64,000 nt of DNA from a phage. The translations under genes and the position numbers were made by a program. Shown here one piece after another: positions 20,300 to 28,223 of this stretch. Within the stretch, counting starts at the first letter, position 1, and every line of letters begins with the position of its first letter. The stretch is from sequence record PX068454.1. The stretch is one strand, 5' to 3'. The notes beneath the pieces were generated by a model, which saw only the letters and a list, made by a program, of their open reading frames with translations, had not been told where the DNA came from and did no database searches.

Positions 20300-20670
20300 T
20301 GATCGGTCTCCTTCTTGTTAAGTCTGAATACTGCAATAATAGCATTTCCAAGGTGCAGTGTCAAATCATTTCCAAGATACCACAGCATCCCACGGTCATC
20401 TTTAATGAAAGGGTAACAATCTGGTGCCTTCCAGACATTGTACACTTTGCCAACCTGAAAGAAATCAGGCCCTGTTGGGATTTTAGTGCCTGGCCACACT
20501 TGAGATACCTGAACACACTCCACCTGCATAATAACAGGGATAGTCATAGATGTAAATGTTTTTGTTGGTTCTACTACCATAAAAGTTTCCTCTTTGCTCA
20601 ACAACACTTCCATGTGTTGATAGTTTACATTAGTGACAATCACCCCAATTACGACCACACAAGTATTCAC
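20296..20670 (-). CDS. hypothetical protein (124 aa)
   Basis: ORF track. Confidence 0.5.
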   Translation of the reverse strand: MNTCVVVIGVIVTNVNYQHMEVLLSKEETFMVVEPTKTFTSMTIPVIMQVECVQVSQVWPGTKIPTGPDFFQVGKVYNVWKAPDCYPFIKDDRGMLWYLGNDLTLHLGNAIIAVFRLNKKETDQ

Positions 20671-20983
20671 CTGTGATCTGGAACGGGACTCCCATCATTT
20701 TAGAAGCTTGCCAGAAGCAATGTACCACCATTTCACCCACAGGGCTCCAGATAAGTTCAAGCTTTCCGTCATCGTTCAGGATAGGATCGTACACCGTGTT
20801 TCCGTCTCTGTCAACCACTTCGTTTCCGTTCTCATCTTTGCGTGCCTTTTTGTACTTATGACCGTCGAACACATGAAGTTTGGCCTCCTGTTCTGCCTTA
20901 AATGCTTCCAGTTCTTCAATTGTGTCGAAGGTGTACACAGTCTTATACTTCGGTGTGTCAGGCACTTGAAGTTGGTACTCATC
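20630..20983 (-). CDS. DNA polymerase (family A), exon 2: motif C to C-terminus
   Basis: Frame opens as DEYQLQV and ends GRNWGDCH, like the Pol I/T7 C-terminus; no ATG, ORF track used TTG. Confidence 0.8.
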   Translation of the reverse strand, partial: DEYQLQVPDTPKYKTVYTFDTIEELEAFKAEQEAKLHVFDGHKYKKARKDENGNEVVDRDGNTVYDPILNDDGKLELIWSPVGEMVVHCFWQASKMMGVPFQITGEYLCGRNWGDCH

Positions 20984-21259
20984 CAATAGTTCAGGTAGGT
21001 CGTTAAGCTACCCCGCACCATTACGTGCATAGCCATACGTTTTCACGTAGGATCGGACCATCTCATATTCCTATGATAAGCAACCACAGGAATCCTCCCA
21101 TTTCGACCGCACTTGCTGGTCTACTTCCTTTCGGAATGGCCTCTGAGCGTTCGCTCTTTTGAGCGCTTCGTTGCGGATTACCTTGCCATAAGGTTTAGGC
21201 TTCCCGCAGTTAAAGAGGTTATTCGACATAGATTACTCTATGAAGCCACAATGTTATTT
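20984..21259 (-). ncRNA. candidate group I self-splicing intron (ORF-less, 276 nt)
   Basis: Joins ..IIYYH to DEYQLQV restoring HDE; 5' exon ends in U and intron ends in G; IGS GUGG pairs with exon CCAU; P/Q/R/S-like elements ACUGCGGGAAGCC, AAUCCGCAAC, CUCAGAGGCCAUUCC, GAGAUGGUCCGAUCC. Confidence 0.7.
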
Positions 21260-23683
21260 ATGGTAATAAATAATACGACGAACACCTTCATCGTACCACC
21301 CACGCTTCACCATCTGGTGGTGCATGAGTATCCCAACTAAGTCACACAGCGATGCACCACCATTCTGTTGGTATGCATTAAGTAAAGAGTGTTTAGATCG
21401 GGTCCAGATAGCATGACCATCAAAAGAGTAGATAAACTTCTTACCCGTTGCTTCCCAGAATTTCTCCAGATCCTCTTTACGCCCTTTAAGACCAGGGTTG
21501 GCATCCCAAAGCGCATCGATTACCCTTTGCCCCAACTCTGGGGAGATATCCAGCATATCTGCAACTTTATCTTTTTGTGCCCCATACATAACCCCATACG
21601 TGATAGGTTTACCGTCGTTACGAGACACCTCTCTACCTGCCACTTTTGTATATGCCTCAGCATTGTTTTGGTGTGCGTCCCCGTTACTTACAACATCGTA
21701 ATACAGGCCGTTGTCGAACTCAAAGGCACCCCAAGCCCCGATAAGCTGCTCTAAGTTGGACCCGTCAATACCGATCTCAAAGTATCCTGGAGGAACACCC
21801 CACAGACTACGCATCTCTTTACCCATAACCACTTTAGGAGATGGTTTAGGCATGTTTGCACAAATACTGTGTTTCTGTCGGGAAGTGTTTGTTAATCCAG
21901 AACTTTTAGCAGGAAGCTTATGGTCAATCTTCAAACGTGGGTGATTAAGAAGACCAGTATCAACCTTATCCTCCTTGATTGGATCAAGGACCGATCTGCG
22001 GTTTCGCAATGATAACCACAAGACGATATCTTTAGCCATCTCTCCGTTCAATTTTTCAAGATTCGGACATAGGTGTCCAAACGTATCTTTCAGTTGCGGA
22101 GAAGTAATAAGTGCCCTGGCTTTTCTACGTATTTTCCCGAATACTTCCTTTTTAATCCTTTCGGAGTTAGGAAAGCTTCGGAACTTGTGCACGGTTGTCT
22201 GGAACTTAGCATCAGTTTTGTTCCAGAAGTTGATAATCAGGTCACAATACTCTGACTCTAAAAGCTCGTCCATATATGCATATACTCGTGCATCAACATC
22301 TGCATCAGGTAGAGCTTTCTTCTTGCTGTCTTTAGTTACATCCTTAGTTCTCCACATTGTCGGAAGCCAACCAGCACTGATCAGGTATCGCTTAATGTCG
22401 TCCTGATTGCTGATTTTCATAAGTATCTTGCAGTCCGGCATTCGCTTCTGCTGTAGATCACTTATTGCCTGATCCATTAGCTCTTTAGGTAAAGGTTGTG
22501 GTGTTGAGGTGCCCTTAATATAGCCTCTCAAGAAATCAGCCATCTTATCGGGGTCTTTGCAGCCCATCTCTTCACACCATTTTATCCCCATCTTACTGAC
22601 ATCTCCTGTGGAGGTAAATGCTCGCTTAGGCGGGGCTTTGAACTCTAAAGCGCTCATATCTACAGGATAGCCAAGCTTATCTTTTAACCATTTCCAGCCA
22701 TTATTGGAAATTGTCCCATCTTGGTTGAACGGCTTTTCAGGGAATTTAGGCCGCTGAGATATTGATAACTCTTTTAAAGGAAGTTGAGGTTCAACACGAT
22801 CAGCGATCTCTTTCATCCACGCATCACAGCGGTCACGTAAAGCAATAGCCCCGTCTATGTCGAAATACACACCCTGACGGGCCTGCAGCTCCATCAGGAA
22901 GTGCTGCAGCATGCCTCGGCGTAATGCGTTCTTCCAGGTGATCTTCTTGAACCCTTTCGGCTTCTCTTTGGCAGGATCGTACATAAAGTTCTGCATGTCA
23001 GACTTGCCGTAGAATACACCTTTTGATTCCGCTACCAGTTCTTTCCAGAGCAGCTCCTGGATGATAACGTCCTCAAATACACGATCCACATACTTCCACA
23101 ACGGAAGATCGCGCCAGTCATCAATTTGAACTTTCTGGTTACCAAGAGCATAGCCCCATGCCATAAGGCCGTGAGGACCAACAGGCTGCATTTTCTTAGT
23201 GACCGGGTTGAATACAGAGTCCGGACAACCTTTTGGTAAAGGGCGATCAGGCCACAAGATTCGACTCATCGCCAACGTATCAAACAGGTTAACCTGGTGG
23301 TCGTTGATAGTCCCCATGCATTTAGGATCACGGAACATGTCAAAATGAATACCGGATAATCTTTCCATCAGCATAAAGTCATAACTGTAGCAGTTATGGC
23401 AGTTCAAAGCTGTTGGTGACCAGTCGGAATTGCCTGTAAGCCAACCTTCCAACTCCGAAAAATCTGCTATGCGAACTTCAAAATCTTTATAAAGAGTTTT
23501 CTTTGCCAGAATGAAGTTCTTAGCCTTTTCTATATCCTCCTCGGAGTAGTGTGTGCGGTCATTTAGAGGAAGGAACAGCATAAAACGGTTCTTATTCAGC
23601 TCTTTAAACAGACCGCAGTGATAATAAAGATCTGGGTCTTCCAGTAAACCGGATGACTCAAAATCGAACGACCACATGCTCAT
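21260..23683 (-). CDS. DNA polymerase (family A, with 3'-5' exonuclease domain), exon 1
   Basis: Exo motifs FDFESSG and CYSYD; motif A GIDGSNLEQL; motif B KPITYGVMYGAQ; stops one codon after YYH. Confidence 0.85.
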
Positions 23684-23741: not shown

Positions 23742-25820
23742 TTAAAAAGGTGTTTCATCATCCTCAAAACCAGGAACATGGTCAGAGGACGGATCATCGT
23801 ACTGGAGGTCTTCCTGCGTGTCAACAGGCTTAACAGTAGGAGTTACAACCTTATCAGCCACAACCTTGCCCATAGGTGTTTCTACAACTGCATGCTCCTG
23901 ATCCTCAAACATAGCCTGAGGTCTCCAAACAACCTCCCCACCTTCTCCATCTGTAAACATTTGCATTTCTTTGTCCCAGTACCAATTACTGGCATCATGG
24001 AACTTACCTGTATGTGGGTCCATAACCAAAGTGTCTGCAATACCCAATGTTTTTGCTGGACGGTTTTTAAGACCTACTAAACGGACACGCCCACGAGAAC
24101 GATCCACCATTTCTTCGGCCTCGACACCTATGACTACCCAACTCAACTGTTCAAGCCCAGCCGATCCTCGCAAATTCTCTTTTCGCACAGGATACCAGAA
24201 AGGTAATGGGTTACCATCCTTGTCCTTAGGAGGCACAATCTCTGTACGTTTGAGGTGAGCGATCACCAAGATAAACACGTTAAACTGCTTACAAAACGCA
24301 GCCAGCTGAGTCATAGCCATGTCCAGTTCTTTTCGCTCATCTTTAACATTAAGCCCTGAAATTACCATAGACAGGTGATCCAGCACAATATAGCGACAAT
24401 GGTACAGGCAGACCATTTGCTTAAGCTTGGTAATCAACTCGTCCACTGGAATAGACCCGAAATGTTTGAACACTTTGATTTTTCCAGCTTTTGCCCATGA
24501 TTGGTGAATCTCTGCATGTTCTTGATCAGTTAAAAACTGGCTAGGATCTTCAACAAACTCTTTAACATCAAACCCTAACTGGTTTGCATACAAGGAGTTA
24601 ATTGCTTCCTCTGGGTCCTCCTCAAGATGAATCATGCATAGACGATCATCCTCTTCGTAGTCATCGGCCTTTGGACATGTCGGGTCCATTAGGTATCTTG
24701 CAATACAGTGTTCCAGTTTTTTGGCTACAGTTGTTTTACCACCTCCTGATGGACCTGTAAGCATTACGAGTGTCCCTTTGTGCAAGCCTTTTAGCATTTT
24801 TTGCAGTTTTGGAAACTCTGCGCTGATATCTACCCCGTTGGAAGTCTTTTTCCGCAAAGATTCGATAGAGAAGTCTTCTAAATCCGACACAGCATCAGGC
24901 ACATACTTAACAGGATGCCGGAACATGTTTACAATATCTTCCAGCTTTTTAGCCTTCAGCATGTCACGGATATCTTTTACACCATCAGGGTCGTTTACCT
25001 CGCCAGGATATTCCACGTGGTAAACGTTGTCAGCCATCAAAAATGCTGCAATATTATGTGTGGCTTCAACACCTTTGATAACGTGTTTTTGCTTCTCTAC
25101 CTCGTTAGCCGCATCGTTGTCCATTGCAAGGACCACTGTTCCGTAGCTACGGATAAATTTCTCATTGTTTGCAAAAGTATCTACTGCGTTTGCACATCCA
25201 CAGTTAATTCCGACAAAAGGCAGGCAGGGTTTTCCTGCCAAATCACCCCCGTTGATAACTGCATCGATCCCGTCCTGGACCTCTTTAGCCCACTGTTTCA
25301 CCTTTGCCGGGGCTTTAGCGTTGGTGAGAATCCCTTTTACTTGTATTTGATATGCAGCCTGCCATGCTGCAATAACATCACCTTCTCCCTCACAAACATT
25401 AATCTGCTTACGGTTGTTGGAAGATGCACACAGCTTTTGACCAAACATCTGGGAGTTAGCCTTTACTATGCCAACAACTGAGAAATGGCCCCTTTGCTCT
25501 TTAGGAATCGTCCAGTCACGCTTTTTGAAACCTGACAGATTTCCGTAGCGGTCGTAATATGGGAAATATGTTGCAGTAACTGTCACACCGTCTTCTTGAG
25601 ACAATGCTGATCGCACACCAAAATATTGTGCAGCCATCAGACCGATATTTTGTTGTGGAACAGGGACAATTTTAGTATTTTCTAAAACAGTCTCTACAGT
25701 TTCAACCTCTTTTTCATCACGATAGTCTCGTTTCACACTTCCCCCACTTTTATACTTAGTTGCTTTCGGGTTTGGCTCACCGAAACGGTTGTATGCAGAT
25801 GCCATAAATTTACTTCCCAT
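23742..25820 (-). CDS. primase-helicase (T7 gp4-like)
   Basis: TOPRIM-like LAMDNDAANE; Walker A GPSGGGKTT; 692 aa. Confidence 0.8.
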   Translation of the reverse strand: MGSKFMASAYNRFGEPNPKATKYKSGGSVKRDYRDEKEVETVETVLENTKIVPVPQQNIGLMAAQYFGVRSALSQEDGVTVTATYFPYYDRYGNLSGFKKRDWTIPKEQRGHFSVVGIVKANSQMFGQKLCASSNNRKQINVCEGEGDVIAAWQAAYQIQVKGILTNAKAPAKVKQWAKEVQDGIDAVINGGDLAGKPCLPFVGINCGCANAVDTFANNEKFIRSYGTVVLAMDNDAANEVEKQKHVIKGVEATHNIAAFLMADNVYHVEYPGEVNDPDGVKDIRDMLKAKKLEDIVNMFRHPVKYVPDAVSDLEDFSIESLRKKTSNGVDISAEFPKLQKMLKGLHKGTLVMLTGPSGGGKTTVAKKLEHCIARYLMDPTCPKADDYEEDDRLCMIHLEEDPEEAINSLYANQLGFDVKEFVEDPSQFLTDQEHAEIHQSWAKAGKIKVFKHFGSIPVDELITKLKQMVCLYHCRYIVLDHLSMVISGLNVKDERKELDMAMTQLAAFCKQFNVFILVIAHLKRTEIVPPKDKDGNPLPFWYPVRKENLRGSAGLEQLSWVVIGVEAEEMVDRSRGRVRLVGLKNRPAKTLGIADTLVMDPHTGKFHDASNWYWDKEMQMFTDGEGGEVVWRPQAMFEDQEHAVVETPMGKVVADKVVTPTVKPVDTQEDLQYDDPSSDHVPGFEDDETPF

Positions 25821-26574
25821 TAATTCTGCTCCTTACTACAGGCTCGTTTGCTAAGAATACGGCTTTTGCCCAGCCACGTGGTGTGAGGCTTCGGATCATC
25901 TTCGTTCTTGCACTCTTTCCACCCAGCTTGGCGTGTTGCATGGAATACCCGCTAACCGCGTCAACTATTTGCGGGACAGGTTTTGTGGCCGGGATTATAA
26001 ATCCATTACCTATCCAGCCGCAAGTTATTTTTGGATAGGCATCACGTGGAGCTATAAATTCAGGAAACCAGGGGTTTACATCATCCTCCGGTAAATACCC
26101 GCCATAGTCAGAAGGGTGAAAACGGTAATCAGGTTTGCGCCACAGTGTGGACATAACACCCACAGGATTCTCTACATGCCACGGGCAATCGTAAATCTCT
26201 CCCAACTCTTCTGCAACCCGAGCATCCTTTACAGCATTAATCTGGATCAACGGGTCCTTAGCCAGCTTCTTCTTAAAGTGTGCAGCACCTGACACCGCTA
26301 AGTGGGTGCACGGAGGAAATGCAAGAACAAAGTCCGGAGCTGGGTACATGCAGAAAGTTTCCTGAGGGAACCATGGATCAATCCAATAATCTACATAGTG
26401 AATATTTGGATGATCGGTGATCACCTCTGCATAACTGCCGTGGTCAGCACCTTCTGCGTTAAAGCACAGGCACAGATATCCAGCTTTTGCCCAGTCAATG
26501 ACTGCACCACCAGATCCGTCAAATAGGCTCCACACAACACCTTTGTGGTAGTGTTCTTTGTAGATAAATTTCAA
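25810..26574 (-). CDS. DNA (cytosine-5) methyltransferase-like protein, short form
   Basis: Motif I FDGSGG, PC-like FPPC, motif VI ENPVG; likely TTG start at 26574 after RBS AGGAGA. Confidence 0.55.
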   Translation of the reverse strand: MKFIYKEHYHKGVVWSLFDGSGGAVIDWAKAGYLCLCFNAEGADHGSYAEVITDHPNIHYVDYWIDPWFPQETFCMYPAPDFVLAFPPCTHLAVSGAAHFKKKLAKDPLIQINAVKDARVAEELGEIYDCPWHVENPVGVMSTLWRKPDYRFHPSDYGGYLPEDDVNPWFPEFIAPRDAYPKITCGWIGNGFIIPATKPVPQIVDAVSGYSMQHAKLGGKSARTKMIRSLTPRGWAKAVFLANEPVVRSRINGK

Positions 26575-26591
26575 TTTGCTGTCTCCTAATG

Positions 26592-26619
26592 CAAAAAGCC
26601 CCACCCTTTCGGGCAGGGC
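26592..26619 (-). terminator. rho-independent terminator
   Basis: Minus strand GCCCTGCCCGAAAGGGTGGGGC followed by TTTTTG. Confidence 0.6.
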
Positions 26620-26625
26620 CTAGTG

Positions 26626-27108
26626 TTAAACCCGGATACCTATTGTATACTCGGTGGATACCAATGTCAAATCTAAATTTAAAATTTCTTGCATCTCATA
26701 ATATGCGTCCAGGGTGAGATACATTTCCCCATCCTTTTCTACATACTTGTCCAAGTGCTTGAGGCATTTCGGATAACTATCGAGTGCAGCTTTCAGACAC
26801 TCAAACTCTGTGCTGTTGATGAGTCCTTCCATCTTGGCTACCCGTTCTGGGGTAACGATAGCACTGTAGTGAGATTTAGCTTCCTGAATGCAATGGGTCC
26901 AAGCATCAACTTTCTCTTCGAAAAGCCCGAAGAATTTCTTTTTGGTGAGCTTCAGATTCTTTAAGTGCTTAAGCACTCGGTTGCCGATCACAGCCACATC
27001 ACGAAACTTAAGGATCACTTTGTCGATATCCTCGCGGCCTATTTTCACAAAGCAAGCCTCACACATTTCAGGAGCTGCGTAACCTACTTTCCACATAAAA
27101 TCTGACAT
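26626..27108 (-). CDS. hypothetical protein (160 aa)
   Basis: ORF track. Confidence 0.55.
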   Translation of the reverse strand: MSDFMWKVGYAAPEMCEACFVKIGREDIDKVILKFRDVAVIGNRVLKHLKNLKLTKKKFFGLFEEKVDAWTHCIQEAKSHYSAIVTPERVAKMEGLINSTEFECLKAALDSYPKCLKHLDKYVEKDGEMYLTLDAYYEMQEILNLDLTLVSTEYTIGIRV

Positions 27109-27120
27109 AACACTATCTCC

Positions 27121-27519
27121 TTATTCTTCCTGAAAAGCAACGATATCATATGAACTTGCAGACGATCCTGGTGAAGAATGACTCCAGTCTAGGTCATCAG
27201 AGTAGTCAGCGTACTGTGCACCACTACGTAGTTTATATTTTACCCACTTACCTGGTGCAGGGTTTTCACCACCTTCCCATACTTCCCAGCCTTCTGGCAG
27301 GCCGTCCTGGGGATAGTCATCCACCTCACTAATAATCTTAGGGTTTGGCACCAAGATCCCTGCAGGCTCTTCCTTACGGATAAGTGTCCACACAATGTAG
27401 GTGTCTGAGCAGGCGCATGATAGCAAAGTATATCCACTATTCAGAACTTCTGCAAGCTCTTTTTCAGCATCTTCCAATTTGGTTAAGTGGTATTGGATAA
27501 CCTTCACACCTGTAATCAT
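27121..27519 (-). CDS. hypothetical protein (132 aa)
   Basis: ORF track. Confidence 0.55.
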   Translation of the reverse strand: MITGVKVIQYHLTKLEDAEKELAEVLNSGYTLLSCACSDTYIVWTLIRKEEPAGILVPNPKIISEVDDYPQDGLPEGWEVWEGGENPAPGKWVKYKLRSGAQYADYSDDLDWSHSSPGSSASSYDIVAFQEE

Positions 27520-27821
27520 CAGAAACCTCCCACTTCTTCAGCAAATGCAGCTGCTGTCGTCGCTGCATCCAGATAGGACTCTAGTTCACGGGCTGCACGT
27601 TTGTAAATTGAGTGTCGCAAATCGTTTGGCAGTTGGTGGAAGTCCACCTCTTCACCGTTGTGGTAAACATGCACATCGGTAATTTGTCTAAATCCGTAAT
27701 AGTCAACATCAGAATCACGGCACTCCGGGTCTGGCAACTGGACAACTGCCTGAGCTTCTACAGTAAACATATCGTCAAGTTCGAAATCGATTTCAAAAGT
27801 GTATGGTTTATAACGTTTCAT
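27519..27821 (-). CDS. hypothetical protein (100 aa)
   Basis: ORF track. Confidence 0.5.
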   Translation of the reverse strand: MKRYKPYTFEIDFELDDMFTVEAQAVVQLPDPECRDSDVDYYGFRQITDVHVYHNGEEVDFHQLPNDLRHSIYKRAARELESYLDAATTAAAFAEEVGGF

Positions 27822-27881
27822 CGTTTAGTGCTTCCTTAGTTTTTGTGGGGAGGAGTGCCTCCCCTTTAGACTCACATCTTA

Positions 27882-28223
27882 CTACTGAAGGTCTTCAGAG
27901 TCAAGCTCAAAAAGAATCAAACTGTGCATACCTGCAGAGAGATCAACACACCCTGCAACAATAAGGGTCTGATAGTAATGTTCAGCACCCTCGATGTCTT
28001 CGTTAAAATCTACAACAAGGTAGTCACCTTTGTTAAAGGTGTATTTGTCCGATGTAAACGCAAAACCTGCCCAGTCCCCTACTGCAGGATCTTTATCAGT
28101 CACCTTTGTTAGCAGTAGATCTTTTTCACGAGATCTTTTAGTAAAATCGTGAATCACAACATCCTTCTCTTCAGGAGTTGGATTGCCGCACACGTAGTTA
28201 ACTATATTTCTCCACAAACTCAT
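27882..28223 (-). CDS. hypothetical protein (113 aa)
   Basis: ORF track. Confidence 0.5.
   Translation of the reverse strand: MSLWRNIVNYVCGNPTPEEKDVVIHDFTKRSREKDLLLTKVTDKDPAVGDWAGFAFTSDKYTFNKGDYLVVDFNEDIEGAEHYYQTLIVAGCVDLSAGMHSLILFELDSEDLQ

Follow-up and report, generated by a model that had tools for sequence, protein, structure and literature searches.

A stretch of phage DNA of 64,000 nucleotides (sequence record PX068454.1; hereafter the window) carries on its minus strand, at 25810..26574, a gene whose product is probably an active orphan S-adenosylmethionine (SAM)-dependent DNA C5-methyltransferase of the compact family PHROG 757, situated in the replication module and plausibly serving anti-restriction. 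The coding sequence comprises 765 nucleotides including the TAA stop, starts with TTG and specifies a protein of 254 amino acids. The window comes from a Vequintavirus (rV5-like coliphage), in which the methyltransferase region is 99.8% identical to that of Escherichia phage RudolfGeigy (Bas52) and, on DNA comparison, 90-99% identical to more than 110 further rV5-like phage records. In RudolfGeigy, MaxBurger and JohannBauhin (98.6-99.8% DNA identity), the identical coding sequence has been labelled "Dcm-like C5 cytosine methyltransferase", and other rV5-like records name the gene "Dcm", "DNA methyltransferase" or "hypothetical protein". Because near-identical genomes already annotate it as Dcm-like, the gene is a recognised member of a common phage family and is not new; an earlier first-pass annotation of this DNA had treated it as unrecognised.

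A profile search, which the first-pass annotation had proposed as a check, matched the protein over its full length (residues 2-251) to phrog_757 "DNA methyltransferase" with E = 1.1e-86. In a large protein database, 3,530 homologues were found at E ≤ 1e-3, nearly all of them 220-260 amino acids long, and representatives at 50% identity, searched exhaustively, gave 1,007 clusters with lengths of 200-260 amino acids. Hence, the small size, estimated in the first-pass annotation at about 250 amino acids and regarded there as short for an enzyme of this kind, is a property of the family and not the result of truncation. The number of homologues and clusters, together with the invariance of P88, C89, E135, N136 and P137, places the resemblance to methyltransferases far above chance. 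By tblastn, a gene of the family was detected in 1,502 phage records, including those of Vequintavirinae, Phapecoctavirus-like myoviruses, Drexlerviridae, Dhillonvirus, Kagunavirus and Klebsiella Webervirus. Two relatives were looked up in their genomic context; one lies in the nin region of a lambdoid prophage (beside Dam, NinG, RusA and Q) and the other in T1-like contigs, and since an adjoining endonuclease was found in neither case, both are orphan methyltransferases.

The catalytic motifs of C5-methyltransferases can be located along the minus strand. The SAM-binding loop of motif I, F18-D-G-S-G-G23 (26506..26523), was aligned by hhalign onto motif I of M.HhaI and DNMT3A, and F18, G20, S21 and G22 are kept in at least 90% of the members in family alignments. 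Motif IV, F86-P-P-C89 (26308..26319), contains the catalytic cysteine C89, which aligns to C81 of M.HhaI and to the cysteine of the DNMT3A SPC motif. Motif VI is represented by E135-N-P-V-G139 (26158..26172) on strand beta-5, an ENP variant of ENV. The invariant K182 (26029..26031) stands at the start of strand beta-7 in a motif VIII-like region, KxTCxWxGNGF, and an invariant C-terminal block, K220-S-x-R-T-K-x-I-R-S-L-T-P-R-G234 (25873..25917), is followed by the terminal helix. The family alignments showed P87, P88, C89, E135, N136, P137, K182, R228, S229, P232 and R233 to be invariant, and a set of 70 diverse representatives retains PPC and ENP in at least 90% of cases. The FDGSGG, FPPC and ENPVG motifs named in the first-pass annotation are the three given above, and their catalytic residues are among the invariant ones.

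Profile alignments were made with reference sequences of M.HhaI and DNMT3A that had been verified against the PDB. The family profile aligned with DNMT3A through residues 11-97, onto motifs I-IV, with E = 7e-5 and a probability of 63%. With M.HhaI alone motifs I-IV only were aligned, and with an M.HhaI family alignment motif IV only. All sequences obtained in a homologue search with M.HhaI were more than 70% identical to it, and no useful canonical profile resulted. In the C-terminal half, QxRxR of motif VIII is absent. The stretch consisting of K182 and K/I183-T-C-x-W-x-G-N-G-F on beta-7 is similar to RARYFWGNLPG of DNMT3A by eye only, the hhalign result being non-significant. Likewise, the I-R-S-L-T-P-R-G block looks by eye like motif IX (RxLTPRE), but the order of the secondary-structure elements places it at motif X.

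An AlphaFold2 model, based on 62 homologues, was obtained with a predicted local distance difference test (pLDDT) value of 90.7 and a predicted template-modelling score (pTM) of 0.90. The model predicts the fold of a class I SAM-methyltransferase that is nearest to solved C5-methyltransferases. Among the top 50 matches listed by Foldseek against the PDB, all were DNMT3A/3B catalytic domains except 3g7u at rank 32, with a best E-value of 6e-7, and the top matches in a viral structure library were further compact phage "DNA-cytosine methylases". A search of PDB sequences with the family profile matched nothing. The DNMT3A and DNMT3B catalytic domains (PDB 5YX2, 6U8P) are the nearest structural matches, yet they share only 13-16% sequence identity with the window protein. 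DNMT3 enzymes have regulatory domains, form DNMT3L-assisted tetramers and target CpG.

In canonical C5-methyltransferases such as M.HhaI, the segment of the target-recognition domain (TRD) and small domain spans about 80-100 residues. The model of the window protein contains no TRD of this length; about 30 residues (190-221; 25912..26007, minus strand), predicted as loops with one short helix, separate beta-7 (184-189) from the C-terminal helices, and this substitute is also shorter than that of DNMT3A/B. Beta-6 and beta-7 are separated by a second conserved insertion, at about 158-181 (GGYLPEDDxHPxFPxxIxPRDAY). These two loops are probably the DNA-reading elements, acting in a manner similar to that of DNMT3A/B. 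Compared with M.HhaI, M.HaeIII and E. coli Dcm, which belong to PF00145, the protein stays below the Pfam threshold, lacks the TRD/small domain as well as a recognisable QxRxR or GN(A/S)V motif, and has 254 amino acids as against 324-482 in the solved bacterial C5-methyltransferase chains listed. Neither orthology with E. coli Dcm nor its CCWGG specificity could be assigned, and the label "Dcm-like" implies CCWGG beyond the evidence. Domains with structural similarity to the compact enzyme (23-26% identity, TM 0.57-0.64) were also observed in uncultured Caudovirales, fused within very large proteins that contain a helicase, namely BFVD A0A6J5SE15 (1397 amino acids) and A0A6J5NPY6 (1126 amino acids).

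One relative of the window protein has been studied experimentally. BLASTP gave 53% identity over 235 amino acids (E = 4e-86) to the Dcm of phage KarlJaspers (Bas06), the 711-bp gene of which was retrieved. It was reported that phage K42, with a genome 95% identical to that of KarlJaspers, evades retron Ec86 through disruption of its 711-bp dcm gene, that K42 Dcm, when expressed, is toxic in the presence of Ec86 only, and that a C82A/E128A/K175A/K176A mutant is inert (bioRxiv 10.1101/2023.08.16.553469). In the same study, liquid chromatography coupled to mass spectrometry (LC-MS) showed that expression of the wild-type K42 Dcm raised the content of 5-methylcytosine (5mC) in the multicopy single-stranded DNA (msDNA) of Ec86 (bioRxiv 10.1101/2023.08.16.553469). 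C82, E128 and K175 of K42 Dcm correspond to C89, E135 and K182 of the window protein. Since the K42 orthologue of the 53%-identical KarlJaspers Dcm makes 5mC and the catalytic residues are shared, there is good evidence, by analogy, that the members of PHROG 757 would be active DNA C5-methyltransferases. A different modification of cytosine, which the first-pass annotation had also allowed for, appears unlikely because 5mC was the LC-MS result for the homologue. The K42/KarlJaspers Dcm (236 amino acids) has the same architecture and motifs as the window protein and is likewise an orphan gene in the early/replication region of its phage; it comes from a siphovirus of the Drexlerviridae, the window protein from a Vequintavirus myovirus, and the latter has 18 amino acids more, additional residues being present at each terminus. 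The formation of 5mC and the triggering of the retron are observations on K42 Dcm. Membership of PHROG 757, the fold, motifs I, IV and VI and the 53%-identical relative that makes 5mC all support the C5-methyltransferase fold proposed in the first-pass annotation.

Several observations weigh against this assignment or narrow it. Scans of the window protein with Pfam, NCBIfam and PADLOC gave no methyltransferase match, PF00145 included, and only 1 of the 70 diverse family members was matched by PF00145 at E ≤ 0.01. A few closer family members do exceed the Pfam threshold, over motifs I-IV only; the score of KarlJaspers Dcm itself, 11.1 bits, stays below the cut-off of 22. Forced local hhalign comparisons of the C-terminal halves with M.HhaI and DNMT3A were non-significant, and motifs VIII-X could not be aligned. 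The fourth residue exchanged in the inert K42 mutant, K176, corresponds to I183 in the window protein, at a position that is variable in the family. The CCWGG specificity of K42 Dcm was assumed from analogy with the host Dcm, the sole support being a mutation of CCTGG in the msDNA stem (bioRxiv 10.1101/2023.08.16.553469). In the literature, no methylome, restriction-digest or other experiments were found for this protein or for virion DNA of Vequintavirus/rV5-like phages. Finally, in the BASEL study, exceptional susceptibility to the six restriction-modification (RM) systems tested there was reported for the Vequintavirinae.

Because of this reported susceptibility, any protection afforded by the methyltransferase is narrow. 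None of the six systems is known to be blocked by CCWGG-type 5mC; therefore, the sensitivity limits the claim of protection and does not refute it. Protection from restriction is plausible by analogy, and the only phenotype demonstrated for the family is a liability, namely the triggering of retron Ec86.

In the mechanism that may be proposed from the C5-methyltransferase superfamily, the FDGSGG loop would bind SAM and C89 of the PPC loop would attack C6 of a flipped-out cytosine, with E135 of ENP protonating or holding N3/N4 and K182 standing in for the arginine of motif VIII; the methyl group would then be moved to C5 of the cytosine. Coupling to the replication genes could let phage DNA be methylated during its synthesis. 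The likely benefit would be a shield against cognate 5mC-sensitive restriction enzymes, maybe of the CCWGG/EcoRII type; as a known cost, retron Ec86 can be triggered by methylation of this kind.

The enzyme may be specific for CCWGG, by analogy only. CCWGG sites are not avoided in the window (136 observed, 162 expected from a maximal-order Markov model), a count that cannot establish specificity. By the same model RCCGGY (3 observed, 15.4 expected), CCCGGG (1 and 4.3) and GTAC (ratio 0.64) are depleted, and GATC, EcoRI and EcoRV sites are not. Unavoided CCWGG beside depleted RCCGGY and CCCGGG is compatible, weakly, with a protected CCWGG. E. coli K-12 carries McrBC, and wild-type K-12 MG1655 is the recorded host of the Vequintaviruses nomo and isim; for this reason, the methylated cytosine probably does not stand in a purine-5mC context, which fits C-5mC-WGG.

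The alternative with the greatest weight, though it is still rather unlikely, accepts an active DNA C5-methyltransferase and holds that it was selected for something other than anti-restriction; the enzyme might mark replicated DNA for regulation, packaging or host discrimination, or counter a defence other than RM. The sensitivity of the Vequintavirinae to RM in spite of the gene agrees with this, as does the statement of the BASEL authors that in the Drexlerviridae resistance to restriction is not simply linked to the presence of methyltransferase genes. The gene is also embedded in, and probably coupled to, genes of replication. Furthermore, E. coli K-12 hosts carry a Dcm of their own. Against such a role, orphan phage methyltransferases are classically anti-restriction, direct evidence for any of the roles listed is absent, and a test with six RM systems not known to be blocked by CCWGG-type 5mC says little on the matter. 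A more elaborate proposal, which we consider improbable, describes the compact family as minimal, TRD-less, DNMT3-like C5-methyltransferases, possibly dimers reading DNA with two loops, with a specificity that is short or unlike CCWGG; the Vequintavirus enzyme would be made in a fixed proportion with the primase-helicase, would act on nascent DNA at the fork and would have a main role other than classical anti-restriction. In a more extreme form of this proposal, the group transferred would not be methyl but, for example, carboxymethyl from carboxy-SAM.

Readings in which the protein makes no 5mC in DNA, or makes something besides it, are much less probable. A CmoX-like enzyme, using carboxy-SAM from the host CmoA to form 5-carboxymethylcytosine instead of or besides 5mC, is very doubtful, given that the motif is (A/G)FPPC and not SPPC, that the neighbours include no cmoA, cmoY ligase or ParB-like gene, and that the K42 homologue gave 5mC in a cmoA-positive host. 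The residue equivalent to N304 of M.HhaI, which is an arginine in CmoX, could not be established in the window protein, owing to the non-significant C-terminal alignment, and DNMT3A, which is a methyltransferase, also has arginine at the equivalent position (GRSW in the verified sequence). CmoX itself (PDB 8YF3; PMC12783734) has 372 amino acids, a full TRD, SPPC and linkage to cmoA and cmoY, none of which applies to the window protein. Still slighter is the chance of a Dnmt2-like RNA (tRNA) C5-methyltransferase that acts on host or phage tRNAs and not on DNA: Dnmt2 scores below the DNA methyltransferases and is not the closest fold match, direct reading of the window protein reveals no CFT motif, and the tested K42 homologue methylates DNA. 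Just as slight is that of a catalytically dead, DNMT3L-like protein that assists the replisome by binding DNA or as an accessory factor. It would accord with the missing canonical TRD, the unassignable C-terminal motifs and the overlap with the primase-helicase gene; however, the residues of catalysis and of the SAM loop vary little or not at all in the family alignment, PPC and ENP persist across the diverse representatives, and the activity of the K42 homologue depends on the same residues.

For the active methyltransferase favoured here, the gene boundaries were read directly from the sequence. The TTG start codon occupies 26574..26572 on the minus strand and is preceded by a Shine-Dalgarno sequence, AGGAG (26587..26583), with an 8-nucleotide spacer. 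In RudolfGeigy, the genome of which is 99.8% identical, the GenBank annotators chose a 765-nucleotide coding sequence with the identical start. A longer open reading frame (ORF) from GTG 26604 was considered and rejected, because this codon is buried within a terminator-like hairpin; it has no Shine-Dalgarno sequence, and the annotators and the homologues favour TTG. At the other end, the stop codon (25810..25812) and the ATG of the primase-helicase gene (25820..25818) produce an overlap of 11 nucleotides (25810..25820, minus strand), just as the first-pass annotation had it, and the same overlap is seen in the RudolfGeigy annotation. The Shine-Dalgarno sequence of the primase-helicase gene, AAGGAG (25834..25829), is located within the methyltransferase coding sequence.

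Between the upstream ORF and the methyltransferase gene there is an intrinsic-terminator-like hairpin with a T-run (26596..26621, minus strand; 11 pairs, of which 7 are G-C, and a T5 tail), and just upstream of it a strong sigma-70-like promoter, TTGACA-17-TACAAT (26642..26670, minus strand; 11 of 12 positions matching). The gene could be expressed from this promoter, with translation probably coupled to that of the primase-helicase. Promoter and hairpin are about 20 nucleotides apart, both just 5' of the Shine-Dalgarno sequence and start of the methyltransferase, and an RNA begun at the promoter would reach the hairpin after about 15-45 nucleotides. The arrangement might act as an attenuator or as a terminator that leaks, or it might give rise to a tiny RNA; an Rfam scan of the promoter/hairpin region matched no RNA families. 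In the related Certrevirus CB7, the authors observed sigma-70-like promoters near helicase, methylase and polymerase genes, the cytosine methylase there being a prediction only; the TTGACA-17-TACAAT element of the window agrees with this.

The genes that surround the methyltransferase bear out its placement in a replication module by the first-pass annotation. The primase-helicase (PHROG 239; DnaB_C) and a family-A DNA polymerase are encoded downstream of it, and a PIF1/Dda-like helicase is encoded upstream. Helicases, primase-helicase, polymerase and small ORFs of no known function make up the neighbourhood in the window, which holds no cognate endonuclease. The polymerase gene (20630..23683) is interrupted at 21034..21269 on the minus strand by a group I intron, which matches Rfam RF00028 with 64.7 bits and E = 5e-15; exon 1 corresponds to an ORF of 809 amino acids (21254..23683), and 20630 is the end of the second exon. 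In the record of RudolfGeigy, the polymerase is given as a two-piece join.

A second orphan methyltransferase differs between the two genomes. At about 27818..27826, between the ORFs 27519..27821 and 27882..28223, the window lacks a 1.33-kb segment of RudolfGeigy (L001 10828..12160) that encodes a 441-amino-acid "putative N6 adenine methyltransferase"; the two are otherwise 97-99% identical. The N6 adenine methyltransferase gene is a clean presence/absence polymorphism within Vequintavirus. The ORF at 27519..27821 (minus strand; 100 amino acids, function not known) was assigned to phrog_4240 and also shows weak similarity (E = 3e-5) to phrog_1573 "DNA methyltransferase", in the C-terminal part of that family, and its RudolfGeigy counterpart stands directly upstream of the adenine methyltransferase gene that the window lacks. 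It was also observed that 16 "Campylobacter phage" records in GenBank (within MG065644-MG065690; host C. jejuni) are 97-99% identical to the E. coli rV5-like region; probably, these host labels are wrong or the preparations were contaminated.

The value of the gene as a discovery is low, the gene having been annotated already and a member of its family characterised. The rV5-like phages, however, serve in phage therapy and biocontrol, and a C5-methyltransferase affects whether they escape or trigger particular restriction systems, type IV systems and retrons (Ec86/Eco1). The remaining interest lies in the specificity of the enzyme and in how a protein of about 230 amino acids recognises DNA without a canonical TRD. 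The family is very abundant, since about 1,500 phage genomes carry a member and its clusters at 50% identity number more than 1,000, and it goes unseen by PF00145; the methylome of one member would annotate thousands of genes.

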